Positions 39,398 through 63,156 of a stretch of DNA of 64,000 nt are shown here, piece after piece. Position 1 is the first letter of the stretch, and each line of letters opens with the position of its first letter. Source of the stretch: Alphaproteobacteria bacterium (GTDB taxonomy: Bacteria > Pseudomonadota > Alphaproteobacteria > UBA7985); NCBI GenBank assembly GCA_965658725.1, contig CBFHUI010000001.1, forward strand, positions 16,567 through 80,566, in the 5' to 3' direction. The translations under genes were made by a program, and so were the position numbers. The notes beneath the pieces are model-generated. The model was not told where the DNA came from. It made no database searches and saw only the letters and a list, made by a program, of their open reading frames with translations.

Positions 39398-39441
39398 TCT
39401 GCTTTCAAAAGGCTCAGCACCTGAGCACGGTGCCCACAGCT

Positions 39442-39900: not shown

Positions 39901-39987
39901 GGTGTTGGGTTCCTTGTTTGCGAGGATCAGAACCCAGAAGTAAGCGCCCGCCGCGCGCTCGACAAGCGCGCGCGGTGGGACAAATGG

Positions 39988-40458
39988 CTACATGCGGTCT
40001 ACGTGAGCGTTCGAGACAAATTCAGTCTCGTAACTGCCAACAGCAGGGTGGCTGCCCAGTTGGGTTTTCAGCAGGTCGGAGATTGAGCCAATCGATTGGC
40101 CCAGCACCTTCATCCGAAGCTTGGGCTGACCCGCGATTTCGGCGATTTCGAGCACTTGATGATTGGAAGAAAGACGAGTGATCAGGTCGCCCAGATCGGC
40201 CTTATCGCTGCCTTTGACCATGATCGTTGCATAGGCCGTCTGGCGATAGCCGAGCACCCCACGATCAACCCGCGCGTGATAGCCCAGAACCACGCCGGTC
40301 CGCTCCAGCTTGCGCACCCGTTCGTAACAAGGCGTCGGGGAGAGGTTCACGCGCTTGGCAAGCTCCACGTTGGAAATGCGCGCATTCTCCTGCAATTCAG
40401 CGACAATCAGACGATCCGTCTCGTCAAGTCCATCTTCTCTGCGGCGTGCTTGTACCAT
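39988..40458 (-). CDS. lrp: Lrp/AsnC-family transcriptional regulator
   Basis: N-terminal HTH (DRLIVAELQENARISNVELAKRVNLSPTPCYERVRKLE) plus a C-terminal RAM domain. ATG start at 40458 (MVQARR). Confidence 0.8.
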   Translation of the reverse strand: MVQARRREDGLDETDRLIVAELQENARISNVELAKRVNLSPTPCYERVRKLERTGVVLGYHARVDRGVLGYRQTAYATIMVKGSDKADLGDLITRLSSNHQVLEIAEIAGQPKLRMKVLGQSIGSISDLLKTQLGSHPAVGSYETEFVSNAHVDRM

Positions 40459-40714
40459 AGTGGCCTTCCCTGCTCCGTCTATCGCATCTGTAACACCGCA
40501 GGTAAGGGCATTCAATTACGATAGTTATGATTCAGTTACCATTTACATCTAATTCTTTAGAGAAGTGAATACCATGCGAACAGATGCCTGTCACCAACGC
40601 GTGTGAGCAAACGTCGTGGAGAAATGCAGGGGGGCGGCGTAAACTCTTTCTCAGACCGGGTGCGCTCAAGCCGCGCTCGCCAACGCAATCGCCGAAGAAA
40701 GAGGGGTCGAGACT

Positions 40715-41641: not shown

Positions 41642-41715
41642 GAAGCGCAGCCTAAAGCTCTCTCCTTTTCGCGGCAGTCTCTGTGCTGCTGAACGGGCCC
41701 TGCTGCCGCCCACTC

Positions 41716-41785: not shown

Positions 41786-46153
<4,368 letters not shown>

Positions 46154-46194: not shown

Positions 46195-49100
46195 TTATTC
46201 GAACGGATTGATCTCTTCATCCGGGCGCTGGCTTGGCGCTCGTGCGCCTTCGCCGAAGACAGACTGAAGCGTCGGCTCTTCCCCGCCTGCACCGTTTTCG
46301 ATCACGTTGCTCTGGCGCAAGTCTACGTTCAGACACAGCGCACGGAGTTCCTTGATCAGAACGTTGAAGGATTCAGGGATACCGGCTTCAAAGTTGTCGT
46401 CGCCGCGGACGATGGATTCGTACACCTTGGTACGACCCGCCACGTCATCCGACTTCACCGTCAGCATTTCCTGCAGCGTGTAAGCGGCACCGTAGGCCTG
46501 GAGCGCCCAAACCTCCATCTCACCGAAACGCTGACCGCCGAACTGGGCCTTACCGCCCAGTGGCTGCTGCGTTACCAGCGAGTAGGGGCCGATCGAACGC
46601 GCGTGGATCTTGTCGTCCACCAGGTGATGCAGCTTGAGCAGGTACTTGTAGCCCACGGTCACAGGGCGGTCGAAAGGATCGCCGGTCCGGCCGTCGTAGA
46701 GCTGCACCTGACCCGAGCCATCAAGACCCGCGTACTCCAGCATCTTCACGATGTCGGTTTCTTTAGCACCATCGAACACTGGCGTTGCGAACGGCACACC
46801 CGAGGTCACGTTACCCGCGATTTCGAGCTTGTCGCTCTCTTCGAGGCCTTCGAGCTCCTCCGGGTCGTAGACATCCGACAGGCGCTGGTTGATTTCAGCC
46901 ATCGCCCCTTCGCGGCCCATCTTGTAAGCCCGCAGCGCATCGCCAATTTGGCGACCAATGCCCCGCGCGGCCCAGCCGAGGTGGGTTTCGAGGATCTGAC
47001 CAATGTTCATCCGCGATGGAACGCCCAGCGGGTTCAGAACGATGTCAACCGGCGTACCGTCTTCAAGGAACGGCATGTCTTCGGACGGATTGATCTTGGA
47101 GATCACACCCTTGTTGCCGTGACGCCCGGCCATCTTGTCGCCCGGCTGCAGCTTACGCTTCACCGCGACGTAGACCTTGACCATCTTCAGCACGCCCGGT
47201 GGCAGTTCGTCACCGCGCTGGATCTTCTCGACTTTGTCTTCGAACCAACGCTGGATCACGTCCACCTGGTCGTCGAACTCCTGACGCAGGTTCTCCAGAA
47301 CCTTCATCGCCTCGTCGTTCTCAACGGCAATCTGCCGCCACTGACCCGGCGTGAATTGGCCCAAGATGCCTTCGTCGATCGCTGCACCCTTCTGGATGCC
47401 TTCCGGACCGTCCTGCACGACCTGCCCCATGAGCACGTCTTTCAGGCGGGAGTAGAAGGACCGCTCGATGATCGCGCGCTCGTCGTCGCGGTCTTTGGCG
47501 AGGGTTTCGATTTCCTGACGCTCAATCGCCAACGCACGCTCATCCTTGTCCACGCCACGGCGGGAGAAGACGCGAACGTCAACGATGGTACCAACAGCAC
47601 CCGGAGGCAGGCGCAGCGAGCTGTCGCGCACGTCAGAGGCTTTCTCACCGAAGATCGCCCGCAGGAGCTTTTCTTCAGGCGTCATCGGGCTCTCACCCTT
47701 TGGCGTCACTTTACCAATCAGAATGTCGCCCGGCTGCACTTCCGCACCGACGTACACAATGCCAGCCTCATCGAGGTTGCGCAGCGCGTCTTCGCCGACG
47801 TTTGGAATGTCGCGAGTGATTTCTTCAGGGCCGAGTTTGGTATCACGCGCCATGACTTCGTATTCATCGATGTGGATCGAAGTGAAAACGTCGTCGCGCA
47901 CGATGCGCTCGTTGATGAGGATGGAGTCCTCGAAGTTGTAACCCTGCCACGGCATGAAGGCCACGAGCACGTTCCGGCCCAGCGCCAGTTCGCCAAGGTG
48001 CGTGGACGGACCATCAGCGATGATGTCGCCCTTCTCCACCCGATCGCCGACCTTTACCAGCGGACGCTGGATGATACAGGTAGACTGGTTGGAGCGCTGG
48101 AACTTGGACAGGCGGTAGATTTCAACGCCAGTCTCAGTGTCGGTCGCGAAGTCCATTTCCCGGATCACGATACGGCCCGCGTCCACCTGATCAATCACAC
48201 CCGAGCGGCGTGCGATCACGGTTGCGCCGGAATCCCGGGCAACGGTGGCTTCCATGCCGGTTCCCACGAAGGGAGCCTCTGCACGGATAAGCGGAACCGC
48301 CTGACGCATCATGTTCGAGCCCATCAGAGCACGGTTTGCATCGTCGTTCTGCAGGAATGGCACCAGCGATGCTGCCACGGAGACCAGCTGCTTTGGCGAG
48401 ACGTCGATCAGATCAACGTCAGTCGGCAGGGCCACCACGAATTCACCGTTCGACCGTGCAGTCACAAGGTCTTCGGTCAGGAAATTCTTCGCATCGATCG
48501 GCGCGTTGGCTTGAGCGACGGTATAGCGCTGCTCTTCCATCGCAGAGAGGTAGACCACTTCGTCGGTGACCTGACCCTTGGACACTTTGCGGTAAGGAGA
48601 CTCAATGAAACCGTACTGGTTCACCCGGGCGTAAGTCGCCAGCGAGTTGATGAGACCAATGTTCGGGCCTTCCGGGGTTTCGATCGGGCAGATCCGGCCG
48701 TAGTGCGTCGGGTGCACGTCGCGGACTTCAAAGCCCGCACGCTCCCGCGTCAGACCGCCTGGCCCAAGCGCCGACAAACGACGCTTGTGCGTAATCTCTG
48801 AAAGCGGGTTGGTCTGGTCCATGAACTGCGAGAGCTGGGACGAGCCAAAGAACTCACGCACCGCAGCCGCAGCGGGCTTGGCGTTAATCACGTCCTGCGG
48901 CATCACCGTGTCGATATCGACCGAGGACATACGCTCCTTGATCGCGCGCTCCATGCGGAGCAAGCCGACGCGGTACTGGTTTTCCATCAGCTCACCGACA
49001 GAACGCACGCGGCGGTTGCCGAGGTTGTCGATGTCGTCGATATCGCCGCGGCCGTCTTTCATTTCAGACAGGTTGCGAACGATTTCGAGGACGTCTTCCT

Positions 49101-50481
49101 TGCGCAGCACGCGCAGGGTGTCTTCCGTATCGAACAGCTCACGGTCAGCATCGCGAGCGGTCGCGGCCAGACGCATGTTCATTTTCACCCGGCCAACAGC
49201 CGACAGGTCAAAACGCTCTTCATCGAAGAACAGGCCAGAGAACAGCGCTTCAGCGGTTTCCAGCGTTGGCGGCTCGCCCGGGCGCATGACACGGTAGATG
49301 TCGATCAGTGCTTCTTCGCGGGTCGCATTCTTGTCAACGGCCAGCGTATTCCGAATGTAAGCACCGCGGTTGAGGTGATCGATGTCGAGGGTGTCGAGCG
49401 TGGTAACGCCTTTTTCCAGCAGCTCTTCGAGCAGTGCTTCCGACAACTCGTCGCCCGCCTCAGCCCAGACCAGACCGGTCTTTTTGTCAAAGGCATCGGA
49501 CGCGAGGTAGCGGCCAATCACGTCTTCGCGGCTGACGAGCAGCTGCGTGACGGTCTCGGCCAGCTTCTTGGCTTTGCGTGGGGTGATCTTATCGCCCGCC
49601 TTCGCAACGACTTCACCGTCTGCGGCGTTGACCAGATCGTCCACCAGCTTCTTGCCGGAGTATTGCGTTGCGTCAAAGGCTGTGCGGAACTGACCGTCGC
49701 CCGCAACCTCAAAGGAAATGCGGTCGTAGATCAGGCCGAGGATTTCTTCGCGGCTCATGCCAGTCGCTTGGAACGGCGCCAGCGACTTGCCTTCTGCCGC
49801 CGCTTCCGCACGCTCACCGGCGGTGTGCTTGGAATCCAGCGCCATCAGCAAGGTCGTGGCCGGCAGCTTCCGTCGGCGGTCGATGCGGACGTACAGCAGG
49901 TCTTTCGCATCGAATTCGAAGTCCAGCCAGGAACCGCGGTACGGGATCACCCGTGCGGAGAACAGCAGCTTACCCGAGGAATGCGACTTGCCTCGGTCGT
50001 GGTCAAAGAACACGCCGGGGGAGCGGTGCATCTGGGAAACGATCACGCGCTCCGTGCCGTTCACGATAAAGGTACCGTGGTCGGTCATCAGCGGCATGTC
50101 GCCCATGTAGACGTCTTGCTCCTTGATGTCGCGGACCGAACGAGAGCCGGTGTCTTCGTCAACGTCCCAGACCACCAGCCGCAGCGTCACTTTCAGCGGC
50201 GCGGCAAAGGTCAGGCCGCGCGACATGCACTCGTCCTCGTCGTACTTCGGCGACTCAAGTTCGTAGCGGACGAACTGCAGCTCGGAACGATCGGAGAAGT
50301 CTTTGATCGGGAAAACCGACTTGAACACTTCTTCCAGACCGGAAGTACCGGCGTCAGGCTTCTGCAGGAAACCGTCGTAAGAAGCGCGCTGCACTTCAAT
50401 CAGGTTCGGCATCTGGACCGCTTCGCGGATACGGCCAAAGGACTTCCGGATGCGTTTCCGCTCGGTAAACGACTTACCCAT
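46195..50481 (-). CDS. rpoB: DNA-directed RNA polymerase subunit beta
   Basis: N-terminus [18 protein letters not shown]...[10 protein letters not shown] plus conserved beta regions. 1428 aa. Confidence 0.95.
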
Positions 50482-50839
50482 GGATATAGGGCCCCCTTTT
50501 TTGGGTCATTTCTGCCAGCACGTCTTCACTCACAACAACGTGGATGGTCGGGGGCTGTCCCTGCGTTAAAGGGTACAAAAGCCGCTTGAGTTCGGGGTCT
50601 AAAGACCGTGAACTGCCTGTTCGGAGCCGAAGCGTCCGGTTTTTTGTATTGAGTGTGTGCTGACAACCATCACTGTCAGCGTGCAGAAATACGCCGGTGG
50701 GACCAATTTCGCAAGACTTCGAGGCTTTGCGAATTGTCAAGGCAGCCGTGTGTCAGAGCGCTCTGTTCCGGGGGTCAAGTGTGATTTTTTCGCCGCCGAG
50801 GTGTACCCCTCGCCCCAATCGCCCCATCCTTTTGCACCC

Positions 50840-51205
50840 CTAACGCACGTCCGCGCCGCGCTCGACAGAGTCGGCGACCATGGCGAGCAGGCTTTCGCGG
50901 TATGTCTCTATCAGCTCGACGGAAGAGCATTTGACGTGCCGCAAGTCCTTTCCCGTTCCTTCCAGCAGCCCCTTTGGATTGCTCAAGTGTGCACCGTTAA
51001 AGAACTGAAGATTAACCCGCGCCTTAAGCGGAATCAGCGCGATCAGGTTCTCCGTCCCACGGTGAAACATCAGCTGCCCCCACTTGATGCTTTCGTCCAG
51101 AGCCGGCGCGCCGACCCCCTCCTTCACCAGCTCATAGAGGGCGTCGTAAAGGGGTTGGTGCTCATCTGGGACTTTGGCACGAGCAGCGGTGTAGGCGTGA
51201 GACAT
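50840..51205 (-). CDS. DUF1801 (YdhG-like) domain protein
   Basis: 121-aa protein matching the YdhG/DUF1801 pattern (IKWGQLMF..., LIALIPLKARVNLQFFNG). Confidence 0.5.
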   Translation of the reverse strand: MSHAYTAARAKVPDEHQPLYDALYELVKEGVGAPALDESIKWGQLMFHRGTENLIALIPLKARVNLQFFNGAHLSNPKGLLEGTGKDLRHVKCSSVELIETYRESLLAMVADSVERGADVR

Positions 51206-51213
51206 GGACGTGC

Positions 51214-52308
51214 TTACTTTCGTAACAGCGGGAACAGTGGCGGCGGCGGTTTGCGATGCCCGTGCTTGCCCTTGGGCGGATGCTTGTGGGGGCGATCCTT
51301 GCCCAGCCCTTTGCGGCCTGGTCCCCGGAACGGCCCGCGTGGACTGTTCGACGGCAATACGCGGCCTGAAATCTGGAACAAACCGCCGCGCCGCTCGAAC
51401 CGACCATGGAGCCGCGCGCGCAAACCTCGCTCGCCCGGTTCCGCCTGTCCGATTATGCCCGGCACCGACACCGCATGACCGTCGATGATGAGCACGCCAT
51501 CTTCACCGCCGGGCAACCCAGCAAGCACCAGATCATTCACTCTCGCAGGCTCAAAAACGCTCAGCGGTCGGGTGATGATGTCGCGTGCCTGAATCACAGA
51601 CGCACCGTCGGTTGCGATCAACAGCGGCCCCTGCACCGTCGCGCGCGTTCCGGTCTGCAGAACCTGATCACCGGTCAGCGCCACCCGAACCCCCGCCACC
51701 CGACCGTCCGAGGTAACAGGGCCAGTGACGACCGCGTCCCGTCCGTCAGTCGGCTCAACATGGGCGGCCTGGATCGTGCCGCGATGATCACGCAGCCCGG
51801 TCACCACGACCCATGCACGCGGCAGCAGTCCACTCGCATCGGTGAGTTCTGAAAGTTCAACCTGCTGGCCCAGAACGCGCAAAAGGGTGCGGCTACGCCC
51901 GGTTTCGACGGCCTCGACTGGACCAACAAGCGCGAAAGTCGCGTCGATCCGCGTGGCCTGTAGCGCCCCGTCGGCGTCGGTTACAGCCTCAACGGCAACC
52001 GTCTGCCCAAGAGCGAGATCGGATTCCTGAGCCGGTCGGCCATTCAGGGTAATGACAGCAGTCTCAGGAATTTCAACGCGCATGTCGTTGACCCAGATCG
52101 AGGAAAACCCTTCGATCAGGCCAAAGATCCCCGTGCCACCAATGCCGGCATCGATGCCGGTTCCCCCGATGCCCGCGTCAATGGTCGCATCGATGCCAGT
52201 GCCGCCGATGCCAGCCCCCGCCTGCCCCCACCCAGCTCGGGCGAGTGTCAATGAGGAGCCAGCCAACAGGGTCAGTGCACTGCGTCGCGTCAGGCGATCC
52301 CGCCTCAT
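51214..52308 (-). CDS. Tat-secreted repeat protein of unknown function (GIGGTGIDA nonapeptide repeats, three beta-rich modules, His/Lys/Pro-rich tail)
   Basis: Twin-arginine signal RRDRLTRRSALTLLAGSSLTLARA with AxA cleavage site. Three direct repeats of GIGGTGIDA. C-terminal KGLGKDRPHKHPPKGKHGHRKPPPP tail. 4-bp overlap with the upstream gene. Confidence 0.55.
   Translation of the reverse strand: MRRDRLTRRSALTLLAGSSLTLARAGWGQAGAGIGGTGIDATIDAGIGGTGIDAGIGGTGIFGLIEGFSSIWVNDMRVEIPETAVITLNGRPAQESDLALGQTVAVEAVTDADGALQATRIDATFALVGPVEAVETGRSRTLLRVLGQQVELSELTDASGLLPRAWVVVTGLRDHRGTIQAAHVEPTDGRDAVVTGPVTSDGRVAGVRVALTGDQVLQTGTRATVQGPLLIATDGASVIQARDIITRPLSVFEPARVNDLVLAGLPGGEDGVLIIDGHAVSVPGIIGQAEPGERGLRARLHGRFERRGGLFQISGRVLPSNSPRGPFRGPGRKGLGKDRPHKHPPKGKHGHRKPPPPLFPLLRK
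52123..52230 (-). repeat. in-frame nonapeptide repeat region (GIGGTGIDA x3) within the secreted protein gene
   Basis: DNA shows repeated GATGCCGGT/GATGCCAGT units encoding GIGGTGIDA-TIDA-GIGGTGIDA-GIGGTGIFG. Confidence 0.5.
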
Positions 52309-53153
52309 TCATCTGCCTCGTCTTGATAGAAGTACACCCCTATACGAACCCGCTGGCCCGCTGCATCCCCTCTCGGGTCAGCGCCTGTGTCCTCTTCTGA
52401 CGCCGCCAAAGCCGCCATATCCTGCAGCAGTGACATCCCCTTCGCCGCGATGGCCTCTCGCAGGGCAGCGGCTTGGGTGGATGAAACTCTTGGGCTGAAC
52501 ATAGCGCGTTCAAAGAAGCGATCTTCAGGCGCCGCCGAAATGTTATGCACGGCTGCGCTCAAGTGATCGCCGACGTTGGCGGCGAGGAAGCCTATGCTCT
52601 CGGTGGAATTGGCTTCGGGCAGGTAAGCAGCGGCGGTCAGCTGAAAAGTGCCGTCCTGCAGCGCTTCGACCAGTCCGGCCGCGATCAGCCCTTCAAGCAC
52701 GGATTTAGCGCGAACCTCAGGGCCGATTTCCTCGACCAGTCCGGCAAAGCTCTGCCCTCCTTCACCCCGCATGGATAGTGGCAGGGGTATGGGTCGGCCA
52801 TCGGCGTGCTGGTAGCTTTCATGTGTAGACCAGCGCGCCACTACGCGCGCCGAAGGGCTATCATGACTCGCCCGCGCCACCGGACTCGTTGCGCCGCCCG
52901 CCGCATCTGCGCGCTCGCTCAGCCAACGCGACACTTCACGGCGATGGATGCCAGTCGCGACGTGCAACGACGACGTGGTGATTTTGGACCCGCTGCGCTC
53001 GAACTGACGAAAAGCTGCCTCTAGCGTCGCGTCCCGCAGAGCGCTTTCCAACATGGCATAGGAAAGGCCCATCCGCAGACCGCCCGAGGCGAGTTCGTGC
53101 ATGAGCCGCTCGGCAGCGGCAAGATAGGCGGTTTTCGGGTCGGTTTCTGACAT
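52305..53153 (-). CDS. hypothetical cytoplasmic protein with predicted helix-turn-helix (possible regulator)
   Basis: HTH-like segment KITTSSLHVATGIHRREVSRWLSE. No signal peptide. Translationally coupled (ATGA) to the downstream secreted repeat protein. Confidence 0.5.
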   Translation of the reverse strand: MSETDPKTAYLAAAERLMHELASGGLRMGLSYAMLESALRDATLEAAFRQFERSGSKITTSSLHVATGIHRREVSRWLSERADAAGGATSPVARASHDSPSARVVARWSTHESYQHADGRPIPLPLSMRGEGGQSFAGLVEEIGPEVRAKSVLEGLIAAGLVEALQDGTFQLTAAAYLPEANSTESIGFLAANVGDHLSAAVHNISAAPEDRFFERAMFSPRVSSTQAAALREAIAAKGMSLLQDMAALAASEEDTGADPRGDAAGQRVRIGVYFYQDEADE

Positions 53154-53244
53154 GGGCCCACTGGCTCGGTTATGGGAGGCAATACGCAGCGCGATCGCCC
53201 TTTATCCCCGCCAGTCTAGGTCACTATTGAGCAAAACGCTCACG

Positions 53245-54405
53245 TTATTTCGCATCACCCGACGTCTGCGGACGCAACGCGCCGCCCAGCGCCGCCATGA
53301 CCAAGGCCAGGACAACCAGCAGCAGAAACGCCAACCGCATGGACGTCAGCTCTGCCAGTCCACCCAGAATGGGCGGGCCGAGCAGAATGCCCCCGTAGCC
53401 CAACGTAGCGACACTCGCTATCGCTGTTCCAGCGGAAACATCCTTTTGCGACGCTGCGCGGGTGAAAGCCATTGGGACAATTGTGGCGTAGCCGATGCCC
53501 ATGAGTGCAAAGCCCAGCAAGCCGAGCCAATACGATCCCGCCACCACTGCAATCAGCGCGCCCATGGCCGCAATTACACCGCTGATGCGCGTCATCAAAA
53601 CGGGCCCGAGCCGAGCGATGATTCGGTCGCCAAGCAGGCGCGTGACGACCATCATCACGGAAAACGCCGTATAGCCCAGCGCCGCCCGTGCTTCATCAAC
53701 CTGCGCGGCTTCGATCAGGAAAGTCGCGCTCCAATCCACCATTCCGCCTTCGCCAACGGTCGTGCAAAATGCCACCAAACCGACAAGGATCAGCATGCCA
53801 CGCGGCAGGGTGAACAAGGGCGCATCCGGGTTGGCTTCCGCGCGCTCTGAGGCCCAAGGGATCGCGCCGAACGGCAGGCACAGTGCGGAAAACACAACCG
53901 CAGCCAAGAAGAAATGCAGCGTGGTCCCCAGCCCCATGCTGCCCGCAACATAGCCACTCAAAGCACCTAGCCCTGTACCCAGTGAAAACATGGCGTGGAA
54001 CGACGACATGATTGGCCGTGGCGCGCGCTTTTCGACTTCGGTGGCCCACGCGTTCATGCTCACATCCATGGAGCCGTGCGCCGCGCCGAACAGGAACATT
54101 GTGGCGCCCAGCATCACCACCGAAACCGGCGTCAGAGCTATCAGGACCAGCGACAGACCATAGACTGCCGCGATCAGCCGCGTCATACGGGCCGCGCCAA
54201 AGCGGTCGGCAAAGCGCCCCGCAAGAGGAAAACTTGCCAGCGCTCCGACCGCCATTACGAGCAGCAAGATGCCGAACTGACCTTTATCGAGACTCTGATT
54301 TTCGCGGATGGTGGGAATGCGGCTGGCCCAGATGCCGAGCAACGCGCCGTTGAGCACGAACATCGCAGAGACGGCACGCCATGGGGTCAAAAGTCCTGCC
54401 AGCAC
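53245..54405 (-). CDS. MFS transporter
   Basis: 12-TM major facilitator pattern, including the GRFADRFGAARM loop motif. GTG start with GGAGGAGG Shine-Dalgarno. Confidence 0.75.
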   Translation of the reverse strand: MLAGLLTPWRAVSAMFVLNGALLGIWASRIPTIRENQSLDKGQFGILLLVMAVGALASFPLAGRFADRFGAARMTRLIAAVYGLSLVLIALTPVSVVMLGATMFLFGAAHGSMDVSMNAWATEVEKRAPRPIMSSFHAMFSLGTGLGALSGYVAGSMGLGTTLHFFLAAVVFSALCLPFGAIPWASERAEANPDAPLFTLPRGMLILVGLVAFCTTVGEGGMVDWSATFLIEAAQVDEARAALGYTAFSVMMVVTRLLGDRIIARLGPVLMTRISGVIAAMGALIAVVAGSYWLGLLGFALMGIGYATIVPMAFTRAASQKDVSAGTAIASVATLGYGGILLGPPILGGLAELTSMRLAFLLLVVLALVMAALGGALRPQTSGDAK

Positions 54406-54483
54406 CGCGCGGCCTCCTCCAATTTTTGTCGATAAAGCCTAACGGCTCCGCCACGCTTTACCAGCCTTCAGAGTGCGATCGCA

Positions 54484-54526
54484 GACAAAAAAGAAGGCGC
54501 TGCATCGTGTGATGCAGCGCCTTCTT
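54484..54526 (-). terminator. rplL terminator/attenuator hairpin (bidirectional)
   Basis: Perfect 16-bp inverted repeat AAGAAGGCGCTGCATC-GTGT-GATGCAGCGCCTTCTT, followed on the minus-strand transcript by UUUUGUC. Confidence 0.7.
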
Positions 54527-54558
54527 TTGGAAAAATCCACTGAAAACAGGGACGCGTC

Positions 54559-54942
54559 TTACTTGAGTTCGACTTCTGCGCCTGCTTCTTCCAGCTTCTT
54601 TTTGATTTCTTCAGCTTCGTCCTTGGACGCGCCTTCCTTAACAGGCTTCGGAGCACCTTCAACGAGGTCCTTCGCTTCCTTCAGGCCCAGACCGGTGATG
54701 CCGCGGACTTCCTTAATCACGTTGATCTTCTTTTCGCCAGCGGCTTTGAGGATCACGTCAAATTCAGTCTGTTCTTCACCAGCAGCAGCGCCAGCGTCAG
54801 CACCAGGTGCCATCATCATCATGCCACCAGCAGGAGCAGCAGCGGATACGCCCCACTCTTCTTCAAGCTTGGTTGCGAGTTCAGCAGCTTCCAGAACGGT
54901 GAGCTTGCCAAGTTCGGCTACGAGAGCGTCGAGATCAGCCAT
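54559..54942 (-). CDS. rplL: 50S ribosomal protein L7/L12
   Basis: [23 protein letters not shown] ... alanine-rich hinge ... C-terminal domain ending AEVELK. 127 aa. Confidence 0.92.
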
Positions 54943-55003
54943 TTTCTTTAGTTCCAATCTATCGGGATATTACGAGAATTGAGTTCAGTTGAGAGCCGCC
55001 AGA

Positions 55004-55519
55004 CTAGGCGTCTTCCTTCGCGCCATAGGCTGCGAACACGCGAGCCAGCTTTGCAGCTGGAGCGTCCACAACGCCTACGATCTTGGATGCAGGTGCATTC
55101 AGCAGACCAATGAGCTGAGCGCGCAGCTGATCGAGCGATGGCAGCTTGGCCAGCTGTTCGATCTCAGCAGCAGACAGCACTTTGCCGTCCATCGCACCGC
55201 CAAGGATTTCAATCTTGTCGAGATCCTTAGCAAACTCAGAAAGCGCCTTTGCTGGACCCACCGGCTCGTCAGAGTACGAGATCGAGGTTGGGCCGGTCAG
55301 CAAGTCACGAATGTCATCGAAAGCGCCGCCTTCAGCAGCGAGCTTTACCAGACGGTTCTTGACGACACGGTGCTTGGCACCCGCTTCACGCATCCGCGCA
55401 CGCAGGTTCTGAGCTTCAGTTACGGTCATACCGGACTGGCGAGAGACCAGTACGATAGCGCTTTCTTCGAAGGCCGACTTAAGCTCGGCGACGAGGGCTT
55501 CCTTTTCAGAACGATCCAA
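55004..55519 (-). CDS. rplJ: 50S ribosomal protein L10
   Basis: LDRSEKEALVAELK... matches the alphaproteobacterial L10 N-terminus. TTG start at 55519 preceded by a perfect GAAGGAGG Shine-Dalgarno (the ORF track extends to 55558). Confidence 0.88.
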   Translation of the reverse strand: MDRSEKEALVAELKSAFEESAIVLVSRQSGMTVTEAQNLRARMREAGAKHRVVKNRLVKLAAEGGAFDDIRDLLTGPTSISYSDEPVGPAKALSEFAKDLDKIEILGGAMDGKVLSAAEIEQLAKLPSLDQLRAQLIGLLNAPASKIVGVVDAPAAKLARVFAAYGAKEDA

Positions 55520-55833
55520 GGGAACGCCTCCTTCATTGTTGAGCCGGCTCGCACGCAAGCGCGCAGGCCAACCGGTTCGTGGTTACGACTGGACAACAAG
55601 TTTTCGGAGAAAAACGGCTTGCCCCCTGTCGCTGGCGTCTGAAACGCCCCAGGCGGCTTGGCAGTGTTCTTACTCGTCTGCGCGGGCGGTAATTAAGAGT
55701 CGTGACGACTCACCTGCGGTCTTGGACAGTCGAGCGTGGGTATAAGCCCCCGCCCGCAAGACTCAACCGCAAAGACGCTTATGCGCTTGCATGGCTGAGC
55801 CCGACCGGCTGAAGGGCTTAGGGGTTAAAGGGC
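55520..55833 (-). promoter_or_regulatory. rplJ 5' leader/promoter region (expected location of L10-leader autoregulatory RNA)
   Basis: 314-nt non-coding gap upstream of rplJ. Assigned from position only; no structure was computed. Confidence 0.3.
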
Positions 55834-57144
55834 TTAGGCAAACACCCGAGCGAAAATCGTATCGACGTGCTTGAAGTGGTAATCGAGGTCAAAGAACCCA
55901 CGCAGGGCTTCTTCACCAAGCGCGTCAACGACTTGCTCATCCTCCAGCAAGCGGTCGAGCAGTTGACCGCCGTTGTGCCAGGTATCCATCGCGTTCGCCT
56001 GCACGATCCGATAAGCGTCTTCCCGGCTCACACCAGCTTGCGTCAACGCGAGGAGGATGCGCTGGCTGTGCACGAGACCACCCATGCCGTCGAGGTTGGC
56101 CATCATCCGTTCCGGGTAGACCACCAGCTTTTCGATCACCCCGGCCAAGCGGTGCAAGGCGAAATCGAGGGTGATGGTCACGTCGGGCGCGATCATGCGC
56201 TCGACCGACGAATGCGAGATATCACGCTCATGCCAAAGCGCGACGTTCTCCATCGCTGGCAGCGCTTGGGCGCGGACGTAGCGCGCAAGACCAGTGAGGT
56301 TTTCGGTCAGCACGGGGTTGCGTTTGTGCGGCATGGCCGATGAACCCTTCTGACCTTTGGAGAAGAACTCTTCTGCCTCACGCACTTCCGAACGCTGCAA
56401 GTGTCGGATTTCCACGGCAATGTTCTCCAGCGCTGAAGCCATGAGGGCGCAGGCGTTGAAGAAGTTCGCGTGGCGATCGCGCGGAATAACTTGCGTTGAA
56501 TGCGGCTCAACCGTCAGGCCCAGCTCGCTGGCAACGTGCGTTTCAACCGCCGGGTCGATGTTGGCAAAGGTGCCAACCGCGCCAGAAATGGCGCAGGTGG
56601 AAACCTCGTCGATCGCCGTGGCGAGACGTTCATGACAGCGCTTGATCATGGCGAAGTAGCCCGCAAGCTTCAGCCCGAAGGTCGTCGGCTCCGCATGGAT
56701 CGCGTGGGAGCGGCCGATGGTCGGGACGTCCTTCAACTCATGCGCGCGGGTCTTGAGGGCTTCGAGCAAACGGTTTGAACCGGCAAGCAGCAGGTCGCCC
56801 GCTTCCTTGAGTTGCACGGCCAGCGTGGTGTCGAGCACGTCGGAGGAGGTCATGCCCTGGTGTACAAACCTGCTCTCATCCCCCACCAAACCGGCGAGGT
56901 AGGTCAGGAAGGCAATGACGTCGTGTTTGACCTCGGCCTCAATGGCGTCGATCGCGGGCACGTCGATGTCACGAGCTTCCATCTGCGCGCGGACCTTCCA
57001 AATGGCCGCCGCCGCGCTTTGCGGCACGACGCCAAGGTCAGCCTGAGCTTGAGTGGCGTGGGCTTCGATGAGGTACCAGATGCGAAACTTGTTCGCCGGT
57101 TCCCAGATGGCAACCATATCAGGACGGGAGTAGCGGGGGATCAT
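55834..57144 (-). CDS. purB: adenylosuccinate lyase
   Basis: Fumarate-lyase family signature GSSAMPHKRNP, with PurB-specific N- and C-terminal regions. 436 aa. Confidence 0.9.
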   Translation of the reverse strand: MIPRYSRPDMVAIWEPANKFRIWYLIEAHATQAQADLGVVPQSAAAAIWKVRAQMEARDIDVPAIDAIEAEVKHDVIAFLTYLAGLVGDESRFVHQGMTSSDVLDTTLAVQLKEAGDLLLAGSNRLLEALKTRAHELKDVPTIGRSHAIHAEPTTFGLKLAGYFAMIKRCHERLATAIDEVSTCAISGAVGTFANIDPAVETHVASELGLTVEPHSTQVIPRDRHANFFNACALMASALENIAVEIRHLQRSEVREAEEFFSKGQKGSSAMPHKRNPVLTENLTGLARYVRAQALPAMENVALWHERDISHSSVERMIAPDVTITLDFALHRLAGVIEKLVVYPERMMANLDGMGGLVHSQRILLALTQAGVSREDAYRIVQANAMDTWHNGGQLLDRLLEDEQVVDALGEEALRGFFDLDYHFKHVDTIFARVFA

Positions 57145-57168
57145 GGGGCGGGCCTCGGACCGTGTTTC

Positions 57169-57900
57169 TTAGATGAGTCCCTTGCTCTTTAAAGAGACGT
57201 GGCCCGACTTACCAATGATCAGATGGTCATGCACCTTTACGCCCAACGGTTGACCCGCTTCGATGATGCGGTTGGTTATGGTGATGTCTGCTTGCGACGG
57301 CGTGGGATCACCGGAGGGGTGATTGTGCAGCAATATCAATGCAGAAGCCCCCAACTCCAAAGCCCGCCGGAGCACTTCGCGTACGTAAACCGGCGCCTGA
57401 TCGACCGTTCCGACCCCCTGACGCTCGTGCTTCAGCAAGCGGTTCTTGGTGTCGAGGAAGAGGATGTGAAACTCTTCAATCCGCGCATGGCTGAGTTGGA
57501 CGCGGCAGAATTCAAGCAAAGCGTCGAAGGACGACAGCAGCGGTCGGTCCGCAATGTTTGCAGCCGCCAGCCGCCGCGCGCCTTCCCGGACCACTGCAAT
57601 CGCGGCAATCGCTGCCTCACCCACCCCATCAACGCGCTTGAGCTCATCAGTACTCGCGGAGAGGACCGAGCCAAGCGTTCCGAAATGGTGGATAAGGTTC
57701 TTGGCCAAAGGTTTGGTGTCGCCGCGCGGGCGCGCTGCGAACAGAAGGACTTCGAGCACTTCATAATCCGCCATCGCTTCCGTCCCTCCCTCTATCAGCC
57801 GCGCACGAAGGCGATGGCGATGGCCCAGCGTGTCTGAAGCAGAAGCAGTTTCTGGAGCGGGTGAAGGCGCGTGAGAGTCGTGAAGCAAATGGACCACCAA
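57169..57900 (-). CDS. radC: RadC-family JAB-domain protein (UPF0758)
   Basis: C-terminal JAMM motif HNHPSGDPTPSQAD. Helix-hairpin-helix N-terminal part. Confidence 0.8.
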   Translation of the reverse strand: MVVHLLHDSHAPSPAPETASASDTLGHRHRLRARLIEGGTEAMADYEVLEVLLFAARPRGDTKPLAKNLIHHFGTLGSVLSASTDELKRVDGVGEAAIAAIAVVREGARRLAAANIADRPLLSSFDALLEFCRVQLSHARIEEFHILFLDTKNRLLKHERQGVGTVDQAPVYVREVLRRALELGASALILLHNHPSGDPTPSQADITITNRIIEAGQPLGVKVHDHLIIGKSGHVSLKSKGLI

Positions 57901-58026
57901 AGTAGGAAAGAATGGACGTAGGCCCCCAGAACTCGCGGCCTGAATTCTACTTATAGTGCAATTTTGTCATATTATTGCAATTTAAATGATTTATGCGAGC
58001 GGACAAATTCAGCCTCGCTCCCGCCC

Positions 58027-58860
58027 TTAGAGGTAAGGCGGTTGTTCGAAACCCTTGGGCGAGTTTGTAAAGATCTCAAACCCGTCCGCTGTAACCCCCA
58101 CCGAGTGCTCGAACTGAGCGGATGACTTGCGGTCGCGGGTGCGAGCGGTCCAGCCGTCTTCTTCGTCGATATCGACCTTGTAGGTTCCAACGTTCAGCAT
58201 GGGTTCGATGGTGAAGAGCATCCCCGGCACCAGCTCGATGCCCTTCCCCGGCTTACCAAAGTGGAAGATGTTCGGGGCCATGTGAAAACTTTCACCAAGC
58301 CCGTGGCCGACGAACTGGCGCACGATTGAAAAGCCTGCTTTCTCACCATGCTTCTGGATCGCCGCACCAACATCGCCCAGCGTCGCGCCGGGCTTTACCG
58401 TGTTGATACCCTTCCACAGGCATTCGTACGTCACGCGCACCAGCTTTTCCCGCGTGGGAAAGGTGGAGCCGCCGACAATGTACATGCGCGAGGTATCGCC
58501 GTGCCAGCCATCGACGATGACAGTGACATCAATGTTCAAGATATCCCGATCTTCAAGCACCACATCATCAGCCGGAATACCGTGACAGACGACTTCGTTG
58601 ATGGATATGCAGGAAGCGTGCTGGTAGCCGCGATAGCCGATGGTTGCGCTGACCGCGCCGGCGCCTTCGACAAAGTCCTGAATCCGCTTGTCGAGTTCTG
58701 CCGTGGTCACGCCCGCAACCACGAACTCAGTGATCATATCCAACGTCTCCGCCGCCAGCCGCCCCGCTGCGCGCATGCCGTCGAAGTCTTCAGCCGTGTG
58801 CAGCGTGATAGGGCCGGAGCTGTCCGGGTGGTCGTAGAGCTGGCGTTGAGCGGGAAGCAT
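58027..58860 (-). CDS. map: type I methionine aminopeptidase
   Basis: Pita-bread fold with metal ligands (D..D..H..E..E pattern: NEVVCHGIP, DGWHGDTS, HGLG). 277 aa. Confidence 0.9.
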   Translation of the reverse strand: MLPAQRQLYDHPDSSGPITLHTAEDFDGMRAAGRLAAETLDMITEFVVAGVTTAELDKRIQDFVEGAGAVSATIGYRGYQHASCISINEVVCHGIPADDVVLEDRDILNIDVTVIVDGWHGDTSRMYIVGGSTFPTREKLVRVTYECLWKGINTVKPGATLGDVGAAIQKHGEKAGFSIVRQFVGHGLGESFHMAPNIFHFGKPGKGIELVPGMLFTIEPMLNVGTYKVDIDEEDGWTARTRDRKSSAQFEHSVGVTADGFEIFTNSPKGFEQPPYL

Positions 58861-58869: not shown

Positions 58870-59575
58870 CTAGTCCTTGATCGGGATGGGGTGCGTGACC
58901 CGGATTTCTTGCGCAGAGACATGGCACACGTAGGCGTAGGCTTCCACCCCCGCTTTGCACGCACGGTCAAAGGCTTCGGCGTAGCCCGGATCAATGTCAG
59001 CAGCGACGTCAAAGGCATCGCAGTCGTCCCGCTGAACGCAGAACACCATCACAGCGCGATTCCCTTGCGCCACCTGCTCCGCCAACTCGTCGAGGTGCTT
59101 GGCCCCGCGCGTCGTTACCGAGTCCGGGAACTCGGCGAGGCGATCGGTGCGGCGTAGGTGGCAGTTCTTGACCTCGACGTAAGCAGGAGGCCGGGCGCTG
59201 TCTTCGAGCAGTAGGTCGATGCGGCTGTTGATGCCGTACTTCACCTCACGGCGCAGGCCCTCATAGTCCTGAAGCTCGGTAATCACGCCTTCGCGAATGG
59301 CTTCTTCGATCAGCGCGTTAGGCCGCCCCGTGTTGATCCCGACCCAAGTGCCTTCGTCTTCGATCATCTCCCACCGATAGTCGTACTTCCGCGATGGTCC
59401 GGGGTCATGCACGAGCACCGTCGCGCTCCCCGGCGCGGTCAGACCCATCATCGTTCCGGTGTTGGGGCAGGAGGCGGTTATGACCGAGCCATCAGCAAGC
59501 CGATGGTCAGAAAGGAAGCGCTTGTACCGCTGAACCAGCGTCGCGCTAACCATCTGCCCCTTGTCCAGTAACATT
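58870..59575 (-). CDS. sfsA: sugar fermentation stimulation protein A homologue (SfsA nuclease-fold protein)
   Basis: N-terminal segment VSATLVQRYKRFLSDHRLADGSVITASCPNTG matches the SfsA N-terminal pattern. About 235 aa. The six-frame ORF continues artefactually for 3.3 kb antisense to pyc. Confidence 0.78.
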
Positions 59576-59694
59576 GGCTTACTCCAATCGTTGCTAATGC
59601 ATGGCCCCTGCGAGTCTCTGGCCGTTGCCCGTCGTAACAAATCCATCATTAATGTCGCAATCGAAACACGTAATGCCGACGAGGACCACCCACC

Positions 59695-62600
59695 ATGGCC
59701 CCACGCCCCATTCGCAAGCTGCTTGTCGCGAACCGTTCCGAAATTGCCATCCGCGTCTTTCGCGGCGCAACAGAACTGGGCATCCAGACCGTCGCGGTTT
59801 ACGCCCACGAGGACCGCTTTGCCCTTCACCGCTTCAAAGCCGATGAAGCTTACGAAATCGGTGTCGGGATGGAACCAATCGCGGCGTATCTGTCGGTCGA
59901 AGAAATCATCCGCGTTGCCTTGCTCTCCGGCGCAGACGCCATCCACCCCGGCTACGGCTTCCTGTCTGAGTCGCCCGAACTGGCTGCTGCGGCTGAGGAG
60001 GCCGGGATCATTTTTGTCGGGCCGAAGACTCAGACGCTGATCGATCTGGGCGACAAGGTTGCCTCGCGCAAGCTCGCTGACGCTGCCGACGTACCCACGG
60101 TGCCCGCAACCGACGCCCTGCCCGATGGCGCAGACGCGGCGAACGAAGCTGGCAAGCGCGTTGGCTTGCCGGTGATGGTCAAAGCCAGTTGGGGCGGCGG
60201 CGGTCGCGGCATGCGCCGTGTCTATGACGCCGACAAGCTCGCCGACGAAGTCGCAGCCGCCAAGCGCGAGGCCGCCGCTGCCTTTGGCAAGGACGACGTC
60301 TACCTCGAAAAGCTGATCGAGCGCGCGCGCCACGTAGAAATTCAGGTCTTCGGCGATACCCATGGCAACGTTACCCACCTGTTCGAGCGCGACTGTTCCG
60401 TCCAGCGACGCAACCAGAAAGTGGTCGAGATGGCCCCGGCGACCTGGCTGGACGAAGACGTTCGGCAAGGCATGTGTCAAGCCGCTGTGCGGCTGGCGAA
60501 GGAGTCTGGTTACCAGAACGCCGGTACGGTCGAATTCCTCTACGACGTGAACGACGGCGCCTTCTACTTCATCGAAGTGAACCCCCGCATTCAGGTGGAG
60601 CACACGGTGACCGAGGAAGTCACCTCGGTCGATATCGTTAAAGCTCAGTTGCTCATCGCAGGCGGCGCAACGCTGGAAGAAGCGGGCATTCCCGCTGATG
60701 AAGAAGCCCGCCGCCCGCGCGGCGTCGCGATCCAGTGCCGTGTCACCACTGAAGACCCGGAAAACGCCTTTGTACCCGACTATGGCAAGATCGTTGCCTA
60801 CCGCTCGCCCGCCGGTTTTGGCGTGCGTCTGGATGGCGGGACGGCCTTTGCCGGGGCTGTTGTAACGCCTCACTATGACTCGTTGCTGGCCAAAGTGACG
60901 GTAACCGCGCCGGATCGGGATCAGGGTATCGCCCGGATGAACCGCGCGCTCGCCGAGTTCCGCATCCGGGGCATTAAGACCAACCTCCCCTTCCTCCAGC
61001 GCGTAATCCGTCACGATGATTTCCGCACAGGCGTTCTGACGACGCGATTCATTGATGACACGCCGGAGTTGTTCCACTTCCCAACCCGTCGCGACCGCGC
61101 GTCCAAGCTGCTCCGCTTCCTTGGCGAGGTCGTCGTCAACGGCAACCCGGAAATGGAAGGCCGCCCGGCCGTAGCACGGGCGCCGCTGCAGCGCCTGCCG
61201 CTGGTTGATGCAGACACGCACAACCGTGAAACGGCCAAGACTGTTTTTGACCGCGACGGCGCGGACGGCCTGGTTTCTTGGATCAAAGCTCAAGACCGCC
61301 TGCTGGTCACGGACACGACTTTCCGCGACGCGCATCAATCCCTGCTCGCCACCCGCATGCGGACCGCCGACCTCGTCGCGCCAATGCAGGCATACGAGAA
61401 CGGGCTGCGCGGTCTGTTCAGCCTCGAAGTCTGGGGCGGGGCGACTTTTGATGTGGCGTATCGGTTCCTCAAAGAAGACCCTTGGAAGCGGCTGGCGCAG
61501 ATGCGCGAAGCGGCGCCAAGCCATCTGTTCCAAATGCTGCTGCGTGGCTCGAATGCCGTAGGCTACACCAACTATCCCGACAACGTGGTCAAAGACTTCG
61601 TGAACCGGGCCTTTGACAGCGGGCGTGGCGTGGATGTGTTCCGCGTCTTTGACAGCCTGAACTGGGTCGAGAACATGCGCGTAGCGATTGACGCTGTTAT
61701 TGACGCGGGCGCGATCTGCGAAGCAACGATCTGCTACTCCGGCGACCTGCTCAACCCTGCGGAAGACAAGTACACGCTGAGCTACTACGTCGAAATGGCC
61801 AAGCAATTCGAAGCCGCTGGCGCACACACGCTGGCGATCAAGGATATGGCCGGGGTCGCTCGTCCCGCAGCGGCGGCCAAGCTGGTCGAAACGCTCAAGG
61901 GCGAAGTCGGCCTTCCGATCCACTTCCACACGCACGATACCTCGGGCGGTCAGGTTGCTTCGGTGCTCGCGGCCAGTGCGGCCGGCGTGGACATCGTCGA
62001 TGCCGCCATGGACCCTCTCTCCGGGCTCACGTCCCAGCCGAACCTCGGCACCATTGTCGAATCCCTGCGCGGGCTGGAGCGGGACACGGGCCTGCCCCGC
62101 GATACATTGGACAAAGTCGCCCATTACTGGGAAGGCGCGCGGCGTCACTACGCTGCTTTCGAGGCCGACATGCGCGCGGGTTCCTCGGATGTCTTCGAGC
62201 ACGCCATGCCGGGCGGGCAGTACACCAACCTGCGCCAGCAAGCGCGCAGCCTTGGCATCGAGCACCGCTGGCCCGAGGTGGTGAAGCGTTACGCCGAGGT
62301 CAACCGCCTGTTTGGCAACATTGTCAAAGTCACGCCGTCCTCCAAGGTCGTCGGCGACATGGCGCTGTTCATGGTATCTCACAATCTCACGCCCGAAGAC
62401 GTGGTGGACCCGGATAAGGAAGTCGCCTTCCCTGATTCGGTCGTCTCCTTCTTCCGCGGTGATCTGGGCCAGCCGGTTGGCGGCCTCCCGGAGAAACTCC
62501 AGACCAAAGTCCTGCGCGGCGAAGCCCCGCTGTCCGAGCGTCCGGGAGCATCTCTGCCGCCCGTGAATTTCGCCAAAATCCGCACGGAACTGGCCGAGAC

Positions 62601-63156
62601 CTTTGGCCGCAAGCCCGAGGATGTGAGCGATCAGGATATCGCGGCTTACGTGCTGTATCCGAAAGTCTTCCTCGACTTCGCCAGCCACCGCCGCGACTTC
62701 GGCGATACCTCTCTGCTGCCCACGCCCGTGTTCTTCTACGGGCCGGAAGTTGGCGAAGAACTGTCGGTTGAGATTGACGCAGGCAAGCGTCTGATCATCC
62801 GCCTTCTCGCAGTCTCTGACCCGGATGCCAAGGGCCGCCGGACGGTGTTCTTTGAGCTCAACGGTCAACCCCGCAACGTCGTCGTTCAGGACGCCCACGC
62901 CGCAGCGGACAGCACGGCCCGCCCCGTCGCAACCGGCGCGCCGGGCGAAGTCGCTGCTCCGATGCCGGGCGCTATTGTGACCGTCAACGTCACGGTCGGT
63001 GATGAAGTCAAAAAAGGCGACGTCCTGCTCTCGCTCGAAGCCATGAAAATGGAAACCAGCGTCTACGCCGATCAGGATGGAAAAGTCGAAGAAGTCTTCA
63101 TCCGGGCCGGCGATCAGGTCGATGCCAAGGACTTGTTGCTCAAGTACGAAGCCTAA
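59695..63156 (+). CDS. pyc: pyruvate carboxylase
   Basis: Biotin carboxylase domain, carboxyltransferase TIM barrel (FHTHDTSG), and C-terminal biotinyl motif EAMKME. 1153 aa. Confidence 0.95.
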   Translation: MAPRPIRKLLVANRSEIAIRVFRGATELGIQTVAVYAHEDRFALHRFKADEAYEIGVGMEPIAAYLSVEEIIRVALLSGADAIHPGYGFLSESPELAAAAEEAGIIFVGPKTQTLIDLGDKVASRKLADAADVPTVPATDALPDGADAANEAGKRVGLPVMVKASWGGGGRGMRRVYDADKLADEVAAAKREAAAAFGKDDVYLEKLIERARHVEIQVFGDTHGNVTHLFERDCSVQRRNQKVVEMAPATWLDEDVRQGMCQAAVRLAKESGYQNAGTVEFLYDVNDGAFYFIEVNPRIQVEHTVTEEVTSVDIVKAQLLIAGGATLEEAGIPADEEARRPRGVAIQCRVTTEDPENAFVPDYGKIVAYRSPAGFGVRLDGGTAFAGAVVTPHYDSLLAKVTVTAPDRDQGIARMNRALAEFRIRGIKTNLPFLQRVIRHDDFRTGVLTTRFIDDTPELFHFPTRRDRASKLLRFLGEVVVNGNPEMEGRPAVARAPLQRLPLVDADTHNRETAKTVFDRDGADGLVSWIKAQDRLLVTDTTFRDAHQSLLATRMRTADLVAPMQAYENGLRGLFSLEVWGGATFDVAYRFLKEDPWKRLAQMREAAPSHLFQMLLRGSNAVGYTNYPDNVVKDFVNRAFDSGRGVDVFRVFDSLNWVENMRVAIDAVIDAGAICEATICYSGDLLNPAEDKYTLSYYVEMAKQFEAAGAHTLAIKDMAGVARPAAAAKLVETLKGEVGLPIHFHTHDTSGGQVASVLAASAAGVDIVDAAMDPLSGLTSQPNLGTIVESLRGLERDTGLPRDTLDKVAHYWEGARRHYAAFEADMRAGSSDVFEHAMPGGQYTNLRQQARSLGIEHRWPEVVKRYAEVNRLFGNIVKVTPSSKVVGDMALFMVSHNLTPEDVVDPDKEVAFPDSVVSFFRGDLGQPVGGLPEKLQTKVLRGEAPLSERPGASLPPVNFAKIRTELAETFGRKPEDVSDQDIAAYVLYPKVFLDFASHRRDFGDTSLLPTPVFFYGPEVGEELSVEIDAGKRLIIRLLAVSDPDAKGRRTVFFELNGQPRNVVVQDAHAAADSTARPVATGAPGEVAAPMPGAIVTVNVTVGDEVKKGDVLLSLEAMKMETSVYADQDGKVEEVFIRAGDQVDAKDLLLKYEA

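Follow-up and report, generated by a model that had tools for sequence, protein, structure and literature searches.

The window analysed here is a 64-kb stretch of an alphaproteobacterial contig (CBFHUI010000001.1 of assembly GCA_965658725.1; its first letter is position 1 in the coordinates below), which carries the genes of ribosomal proteins L10 and L7/L12 (rplJ and rplL) and the RNA polymerase genes rpoB and rpoC. According to the open reading frame (ORF) listing and Pfam searches, the genes on the minus strand are ordered map-radC-purB-rplJ-rplL-[MFS, DUF6502, DUF5666, DUF1801]-rpoB-rpoC, the bracketed cassette comprising a transporter of the major facilitator superfamily (MFS) and three proteins of DUF families. 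Three of the usual junctions of the tuf-secE-nusG-rplKA-rplJL-rpoBC-rpsL supercluster are broken in this arrangement, namely rplA|rplJ, rplL|rpoB and rpoC|rpsL, and not two. An earlier note, made from the sequence alone, had recognised the first two breaks, to which the severed rpoC-rpsL link has now to be added. The arrangement is probably the outcome of an ancient, lineage-specific break-up of the supercluster in a clade of uncultured marine Alphaproteobacteria, the pieces of which would function as separate units.

Both inner gene pairs are still adjacent. The rplJ gene (55004-55519, minus strand; Pfam Ribosomal_L10) encodes 171 aa and begins with a TTG codon located after AGGAGG; the raw ORF extends to 55558, and it is the 171-aa version that is called in independent assemblies. 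A spacer of 61 nt separates it from rplL (54559-54942, minus strand; Ribosomal_L12 and L12_N), which is also called as a 127-aa gene in independent assemblies, and 113 nt lie between rpoB (46195-50481, minus strand) and rpoC (41786-46081, minus strand). The distance from the rplL stop codon to the rpoB start codon amounts to 4077 nt and accommodates, all on the minus strand, the genes of the MFS transporter (386 aa, 53245-54405; MFS_1), the DUF6502 protein (282 aa, 52305-53153; PF20112), the DUF5666 protein (364 aa, 51214-52308; PF18914) and the DUF1801 protein (121 aa, 50840-51205; PF08818). The DUF6502 and DUF5666 genes overlap by 4 nt and the DUF5666 and DUF1801 genes are 8 nt apart. The spacer 5' of rpoB was measured as 358 nt, the length given in the earlier note. 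The ORF listing and Pfam also agree with its account of four co-oriented non-ribosomal genes between rplL and rpoB, and Pfam with its placement of purB (55834-57144, minus strand; Lyase_1 and ADSL_C), followed by radC, map and sfsA, 5' of rplJ instead of rplA.

The missing members of the supercluster were sought by tblastn with Tuf, SecE, NusG, RplK and RplA of a canonical relative, Algihabitans albus, as queries (locus L020; L-numbers such as L001 or L011 are labels of the compared loci). None of the five proteins gave a match in the 64-kb window, and RplK and RplA had no match within 10 kb in the clade loci, while canonical outgroups do have both. The search for secE-nusG-rplK-rplA, as proposed in the earlier note, was run in the window and in the flanks of the clade loci, and the genes were found in neither. 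Like rplKA, the nusG, secE, tuf and rpsL genes are missing from the clade loci and present in the canonical outgroups. An exact look-up of the pyruvate carboxylase of the window, which was meant to extend the contig towards rplKA, returned no match. The N-terminal motif of RpsL was not found in the window by a motif scan either; in six outgroup loci, rpsL lies a few hundred bases downstream of rpoC. The region 3' of rpoC (36173-41700) contains a convergent LptF/G-like gene, an AsnC-type regulator, msrA and a methyltransferase, and no rpsL-rpsG-fusA. The LptF/G-like ORF matches only the N-terminal third of its profile.

A scan with RplJ over one genome per GTDB species revealed eight metagenome-assembled genomes (MAGs) whose RplJ is 87-95% identical. 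Their labels read Geminicoccus sp. MED756/SP156, Rhodospirillaceae bacterium or Alphaproteobacteria bacterium, and the taxonomic placement of the clade is taken from these labels only. The order map-radC-purB-rplJ-rplL-[cassette]-rpoB-rpoC was found in the MAG loci long enough to show it, as well as in more distant members, which were located via DUF6502 homologues (51-57% identical). When the DUF6502 protein was looked up by exact sequence, 13 contigs from different ENA and Logan assemblies were retrieved, and the ten of them that were listed all have the same gene order. At least eight contigs, assembled independently from various runs and samples, span the junction between rplL and the MFS gene, and at least three span that between DUF1801 and rpoB. 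Misassembly is refuted by this comparison. Every clade relative (RplJ identity of at least 87%) and every in-clade DUF6502 locus shares the split, which supports the view of the earlier note that a genuine and old rearrangement has become fixed in the lineage. Across the MAG and clade loci, sequence identity remains at 94-96% for rpoB and falls to 51-68% for DUF6502, 52-57% for DUF5666 and 71-76% for the MFS transporter. Because the cassette proteins have diverged to this extent while rpoB stays at 94-96%, the cassette must be old relative to the clade and fast-evolving.

In an alignment of 8-10 clade sequences, the ∼270 nt preceding rplJ (55520-55790) are nearly invariant, and the sequence further upstream towards purB is unconserved. 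The conserved block contains a promoter-like element on the minus strand (TTGAGT at 55766-55761, a spacer of 16 nt and TATACC at 55744-55739). The leader that follows is ∼220 nt long and contains conserved hairpins; one of them has a UUAA internal loop, and one helix shows compensatory changes. In E. coli, the L10-L12 recognition site includes a UUAA bulge, which provides a lead rather than a test, and the rplJ leader of the window is presumably an L10-L12 autoregulatory site as well. Neither the Rfam L10_leader nor any other credible family was detected at the rplJ leader, the rplL terminator or the rpoB leader when the whole window was scanned at gathering score and the region 50300-56000 at E ≤ 1, the latter giving only weak unrelated matches. 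In the entire 64 kb, no Rfam family reached the gathering score and no tRNA or tmRNA gene was found.

The rplL gene is followed by an intrinsic terminator (54483-54532, minus strand), which consists of a perfect 18-bp stem (54489-54506 paired with 54511-54528), a 4-nt loop and a run of six U residues. The hairpin folds with -41.9 kcal/mol in a 91-nt context (z = -6.7 versus shuffled sequences) and has been preserved in every clade member by compensatory substitutions, preceded by an A-run and followed by a T-run. In the window, the upstream A-run makes the structure look bidirectional. The earlier note had rightly seen a hairpin after rplL, although its coordinates (54484-54526) need to be corrected to 54489-54528. 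As the canonical outgroups carry a hairpin and a T-run at the same position, the terminator of the window occupies the place of the old attenuator. In the members where a small opposite-strand ORF follows rplL, it would act as a bidirectional terminator. Within the interval between the terminator and the MFS gene, three of the four MFS-bearing lineages share the motif TGG(T/C)AA-16 nt-TAGG(N)T in the alignment, which may weakly be considered a promoter-like element of the transporter gene.

The composition of the cassette differs within the clade. DUF6502 and DUF5666 are present in every clade locus covering the slot. The MFS gene is limited to one sub-lineage (the window, L011, L012, L017 and L072-74) and is absent in L014-16 and L064, and DUF1801 occurs only in the lineage of the window and in L017. 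Nearly all clade members possess a further ORF of ∼120 aa on the opposite strand just upstream of DUF6502 (minus strand of L064, 7408-7770; L017, 6807-7178; L011, 2476-2835; and L016, 11139-11519), which is absent from the window (53154-53244). Its product has a signal peptide, two invariant cysteines and a GKGKGK tail, and it has no match in Pfam or NCBIfam. The lineage of the window lost this small ORF together with two of three copies of a palindrome described below. From their distribution, the MFS and DUF1801 genes are later additions, and the small divergent gene seems to have accompanied the module ancestrally. NCBIfam offered no subfamily for the MFS, DUF6502, DUF5666 or DUF1801 proteins or for the small ORF, the MFS matches being far below the cut-off.

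The DUF6502 protein matches PF20112 with 84.6 bits (cut-off 27) over profile positions 5-262 of 268. The earlier note had described it as a helix-turn-helix (HTH) protein; the gene is there and belongs to the DUF6502 family, and its HTH/winged-helix domains are inferred from a structure model only. The DUF5666 protein matches PF18914 with 42 bits (cut-off 27) in one stretch, to which the structure model adds OB-fold repeats that the profile leaves unscored. Its N-terminus, MRRDRLTRRSALTLLAGSSLTLARA, contains the candidate twin-arginine (Tat) signal TRRSAL, the two arginines of which are also found in the family consensus, and the signal MRRDRLTRRSALTLLAG...ARA is followed by GIGGTG repeats and a basic tail. 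The former description of this product as a Tat-secreted repeat protein holds as far as the candidate twin-arginine signal and the GIGGTG repeats are concerned, and is refined by the structure model, in which about four to five tandem OB-fold domains are seen. The literature search yielded no publication on DUF6502, and DUF5666 was mentioned only incidentally.

DUF6502 homologues of 30-36% identity are widespread in metagenomes (325 confirmed matches in a JGI scan). In many of the homologous loci a DUF5666 gene lies directly downstream of DUF6502, usually with overlapping stop and start codons. The pair is widespread in Proteobacteria. It was found in the cultured Mesorhizobium loti (L152, 5135-7101) and Azospirillum sp. 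A26 (L153, 5096-7434), in unrelated neighbourhoods, and also in L066, L069 and many of the loci L082-L151. Since the two genes occur together in unrelated neighbourhoods, they form a self-contained module, for which the best guess would be a regulator combined with an exported ligand-binding protein. The neighbours of the module elsewhere include fasciclin-domain proteins, a multicopper oxidase, a flavocytochrome c sulfide dehydrogenase and a histidine kinase.

A 15-bp palindrome, TGAGCGTTTTGCTCA, is located at 53228-53242, 75 nt before the DUF6502 start codon, and represents a candidate operator. Most clade members have three copies of the form TG(A/T)GC-N5-GC(G/T)CA, ∼30 nt apart, of which the window keeps one. 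In distant loci, the DUF6502 gene is preceded by TG(N)GCAAATTGC(N)CA, and the copies of distant lineages include TGCGCAAATTGCGCA at -29, TGGGCAAATTGCGCA at -60 and TGTGCAAATTGCACA at -108 and -128. The general form TG(N)GC-N5-GC(N)CA with an A/T-rich centre was located in L064 (7814-7889), L069 (1034-1048), L099 (9935-9949) and L143 (∼108 nt upstream of DUF6502). The strict palindrome, with a centre of A/T only, occurs 37 times in the 1.45 Mb of all fetched loci and is present in 22 of the 80 distinct DUF6502 upstream regions. In its position and form, the palindrome looks like an operator for the module's own regulator.

Conservation sets in again abruptly ∼270 nt before rpoB (at ∼50750), where the 12 aligned clade sequences are 81% identical. 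A candidate rpoB promoter was recognised in the clade alignment on the minus strand, with TTGCGA at 50714-50709, a spacer of 17 nt and TATTTC at 50691-50686; the pattern TTG-N3-17 nt-TA-N2-TC is invariant in all members (50714-50686 in the window), and an extra TTGACA (50740-50735) is conserved only in the sub-lineage of the window. The rpoB leader of ∼200 nt (50482-50700) has a predicted multi-helix consensus structure, in which 96.8% of cells pair, and the rpoB start codon lies within a small conserved hairpin. When the outgroup loci were searched with this leader alignment (nhmmer), none of them gave a homologue. No member has a hairpin with a U-run between its last cassette gene and the leader, and in some the gap is only 25-60 nt.

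As to the more distant neighbours, radC (57169-57900, minus strand; RadC in Pfam and NCBIfam) and map (58027-58860, minus strand; Peptidase_M24) precede purB, sfsA comes next after map, and a pyruvate carboxylase gene lies on the opposite strand. A minus-strand ORF of 1342 aa (58870-62898) is a high-GC artefact; its 3' end corresponds to sfsA, and the remainder runs antisense to the plus-strand pyruvate carboxylase gene (1153 aa, 59695-63156). Similar long antisense ORFs overlap rpoB and rpoC as well. In two near-identical metagenome contigs, L001 and L002, radC is called as a 91-aa fragment (3989-4390 and 4113-4514, respectively), which matches the RadC of the window at only 89% and over half its length. 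RplJ of L001 is 94% identical to that of the window, the neighbouring proteins being 100% identical. These differences suggest local variation between strains, or recombination, in the neighbourhood of radC and rplJ.

Taken as a break-up into separate units, the observations can be arranged as follows. The supercluster would have broken at rplA|rplJ, rplL|rpoB and rpoC|rpsL. In E. coli, these junctions are transcription-unit boundaries or attenuation points: rplJ is preceded by the PL10 promoter, an attenuator lies between rplL and rpoB, and the third junction is the end of rpoC. Because the breaks fall at such places, the pieces should be able to work alone. The rplJL unit has kept its promoter-like element, its leader and a strong terminator that is position-homologous to the canonical attenuator. 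The slot behind the terminator would then have been taken by the two-gene module, in which DUF6502 is a probable DNA-binding regulator acting on the palindrome upstream of its own gene, and DUF5666, translationally coupled to it, would be exported by the Tat or Sec route and bear several OB folds. In the lineage of the window, the small divergent gene was probably lost, and the MFS gene gained upstream and the DUF1801 gene downstream. Finally, transcription of rpoBC most likely starts at a conserved promoter of its own and proceeds through the ∼200-nt structured leader; as the cassette and this leader have no terminator between them, transcripts of the cassette may contribute to the transcription of rpoBC. 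The rplJL genes, the cassette and rpoBC each carry their own conserved candidate control elements.

Several observations weigh against this explanation. The location of rplKA was found neither in the window nor in the 10-kb flanks of the clade loci. Compensatory changes in the rpoB leader fall mostly in one hairpin, with single ones in two other helices and most pairs invariant, and covariation was counted on nine distinct, closely related sequences. Both candidate -10 hexamers, those of rplJ and rpoB, end in C, which is atypical, so that they are consensus-like matches only, and a generic sigma-70 scan found no promoter in 50000-58000. The terminator rule of the same generic scan missed the rplL hairpin; because it missed even this structure, the statements on promoters made here are based on the clade alignments. 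The structure model of the DUF6502 protein is only moderately confident, and its structural matches are partial. Furthermore, the hairpin at the canonical position is a partial attenuator in E. coli, and for this reason some read-through from rplL into the MFS gene is possible.

If such read-through were extensive, rplJL, the cassette and rpoBC might constitute one long growth-rate-controlled operon, in which the rplJ promoter reads through the hairpin and the cassette into rpoBC and the accessory genes track the ribosomal proteins. All genes from rplJ to rpoC are indeed co-oriented in the window, the hairpin stands at the canonical site of partial attenuation, the cassette genes are tightly spaced (-4 nt between DUF6502 and DUF5666, 8 nt between DUF5666 and DUF1801), and a terminator before rpoB is lacking. 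However, the terminator has an 18-bp perfect stem and a U6 run, and rplL is followed in most of the clade by an opposite-strand gene, to which read-through would be antisense. The elements resembling an operator and a promoter that are conserved in front of DUF6502 and of rpoB, respectively, and the variable content of the cassette in front of a fixed rpoB leader, speak against one common transcript too, and a single operon of this kind therefore appears unlikely. The earlier note had supposed that read-through from rplJL puts the cassette under ribosomal-operon control. This idea is disfavoured for the core genes, since the terminator is strong, the first gene of the ancestral cassette is on the opposite strand and the operator-like site is conserved; co-transcription of the cassette from rplJL is accordingly judged unlikely from these features. 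Only the MFS gene of the window's sub-lineage lies co-oriented directly behind the terminator.

A different coupling can be imagined at the other end of the cassette, where the DUF6502 regulator and an operator-controlled promoter could be kept upstream of rpoB as a signal-responsive input to the synthesis of the RNA polymerase core. Throughout the clade, the module invariably lies directly in front of the rpoB leader, and the two are separated by no terminator and, in some members, by those 25-60 nt only. Yet the same module exists elsewhere without any link to rpoB, rpoB has its own conserved promoter-like element, and positional conservation in a young clade may be simple inheritance, all of which makes the proposal quite improbable. 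If it were true, the ∼200-nt structured rpoB leader, which belongs to no Rfam family, would form part of a lineage-specific rewiring of rpoBC control. In more general terms, if the cassette does feed rpoBC, the dosage of RNA polymerase would be unusually regulated in abundant marine bacteria, which the present evidence does not favour.

That the cassette is a recent, horizontally acquired island between rplL and rpoB is more doubtful still and has to be regarded as very improbable. It is true that the module, being found in unrelated contexts in many bacteria, must have moved during evolution, and that the MFS gene, the DUF1801 gene and the small ORF differ between sub-lineages. Against a recent arrival, the module sits at the same site in every clade member examined, its proteins having diverged to 51-68% identity while rpoB remains at 94-96%, and the Pfam, repeat and tRNA scans of the window revealed no integrase, transposase, flanking repeat or tRNA around the cassette. 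The cassette genes have a GC content of 0.59-0.65 compared with a window mean of 0.611, and their GC3 (GC content at third codon positions) is within the range of their neighbours, which bears out the host-like GC noted earlier. A mobile genomic island was likewise rejected, as mobility genes, repeats and tRNA are lacking, the GC content is typical and the cassette is present in all clade members. The probability of an assembly artefact, that is, of a chimeric contig joining rplJL, unrelated DNA and rpoBC, is practically negligible, given the junctions found in at least eight and at least three independent contigs and the same order in eight species-level MAGs, which stem from several studies and include a long-read contig of 700 kb.

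To judge how exceptional the split is, one has to consider the next relatives of the clade, with RplJ at most 58% identical, which mostly have the canonical order tuf-secE-nusG-rplK-rplA-rplJ-rplL-rpoB-rpoC. A canonical rplL-rpoB spacer was taken to be about 150-600 nt. Among the 39 evaluable alphaproteobacterial outgroup loci, the rplL-rpoB gap is <1 kb in 24 and 1.4-4.3 kb in 10; in two (Erythrobacter, Croceibacterium) rpoBC is inverted upstream of rplJ, and in three (Sphingomicrobium and Croceibacterium MAGs) no rpoB is present within ∼9.5 kb. Overall, rplL and rpoB are separated in 15 of the 39. The inserts in these outgroups include a sulfotransferase, which recurs in four loci, an alpha/beta hydrolase, a PAS-GGDEF-EAL protein and a DOPA-dioxygenase-like protein; because these genes are unrelated to those of the window, the outgroup splits are independent events at the same junctions. 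Unrelated rplL-rpoB inserts of their own occur in Sphingomicrobium-like MAGs, several other alphaproteobacterial MAGs and Micavibrio, and the loci with their own inserts or inversions are L026, L027, L029, L031, L039, L046, L060, L061, L063 and L057, together with L037 and L052.

In view of these counts, and of precedents in Mycobacterium tuberculosis and Bacillus subtilis, the exceptionality implied by the earlier note is weakened: the split is only mildly unusual and adds one more case to a type of cluster split that is already known. What it does illustrate is that a "universally conserved" supercluster can be divided harmlessly at the places where its transcription units naturally end, and that such cuts arose several times independently in the sampled Alphaproteobacteria. 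For annotation and phylogenomic pipelines which rely on the synteny of the supercluster, the clade is a documented exception. The site also draws attention to a widespread, uncharacterised module, composed of the regulator-like DUF6502 protein and a predicted exported DUF5666 protein with multiple OB folds and accompanied by a candidate operator; Mesorhizobium and Azospirillum are among the cultivated hosts in which this module would be open to testing.

Among the known systems, the E. coli operon structure, with the PL11 and PL10 promoters and the rplL-rpoB attenuator, is the natural reference. Like the canonical cluster of E. coli, Vibrio and most Alphaproteobacteria, the window has the rplJ-rplL and rpoB-rpoC pairs, a hairpin with a U-run after rplL, a promoter-like element and a long leader of rplJ, and a long rpoB leader. 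It differs in that purB, and not rplKA, is upstream of rplJ, four unrelated genes spanning 3.9 kb occupy the rplL-rpoB gap and rpsL does not follow rpoC. The Sphingomonadales-type and Micavibrio loci belong to the same class: rplL and rpoB are 1.4-4.3 kb apart, or rpoBC is inverted or relocated, and in many of them rplA and rplJ are several kb apart as well. Their inserts are unrelated to that of the window.

The locus has been described as widely or universally conserved, yet rplKA and rplJL are split in Bradyrhizobium diazoefficiens and Actinomyces israelii (bioRxiv 10.1101/2025.04.14.645983). In both, the two pairs are separated as in the window, although only that junction is reported broken there (10.1101/2025.04.14.645983). 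M. tuberculosis shares with the window clade the splitting of rplL from rpoB by unrelated genes and a long rpoB 5' leader region, but it belongs to another phylum, and its split is of independent origin, with a larger insert that contains toxin-antitoxin genes and regulators and lacks DUF6502 and DUF5666. In strain H37Rv, rplKA (Rv0640-0641) is located apart from rplJL, which begins at Rv0651. There, rplJ-rplL (Rv0651-0652) are followed by a convergent tetR gene (Rv0653c), rpoB-rpoC are Rv0667-0668, and rpoB has its own 360-nt 5' untranslated region with a suggested role in attenuation (PMC3207917). In B. subtilis, finally, the order is rplK rplA rplJ rplL ybxB rpoB rpoC ... rpsL, so that a co-oriented non-ribosomal gene stands between rplL and rpoB as in the window (PMC4634966); it is, however, one inserted gene inside one described transcription unit, with rplKA and rpsL still linked.

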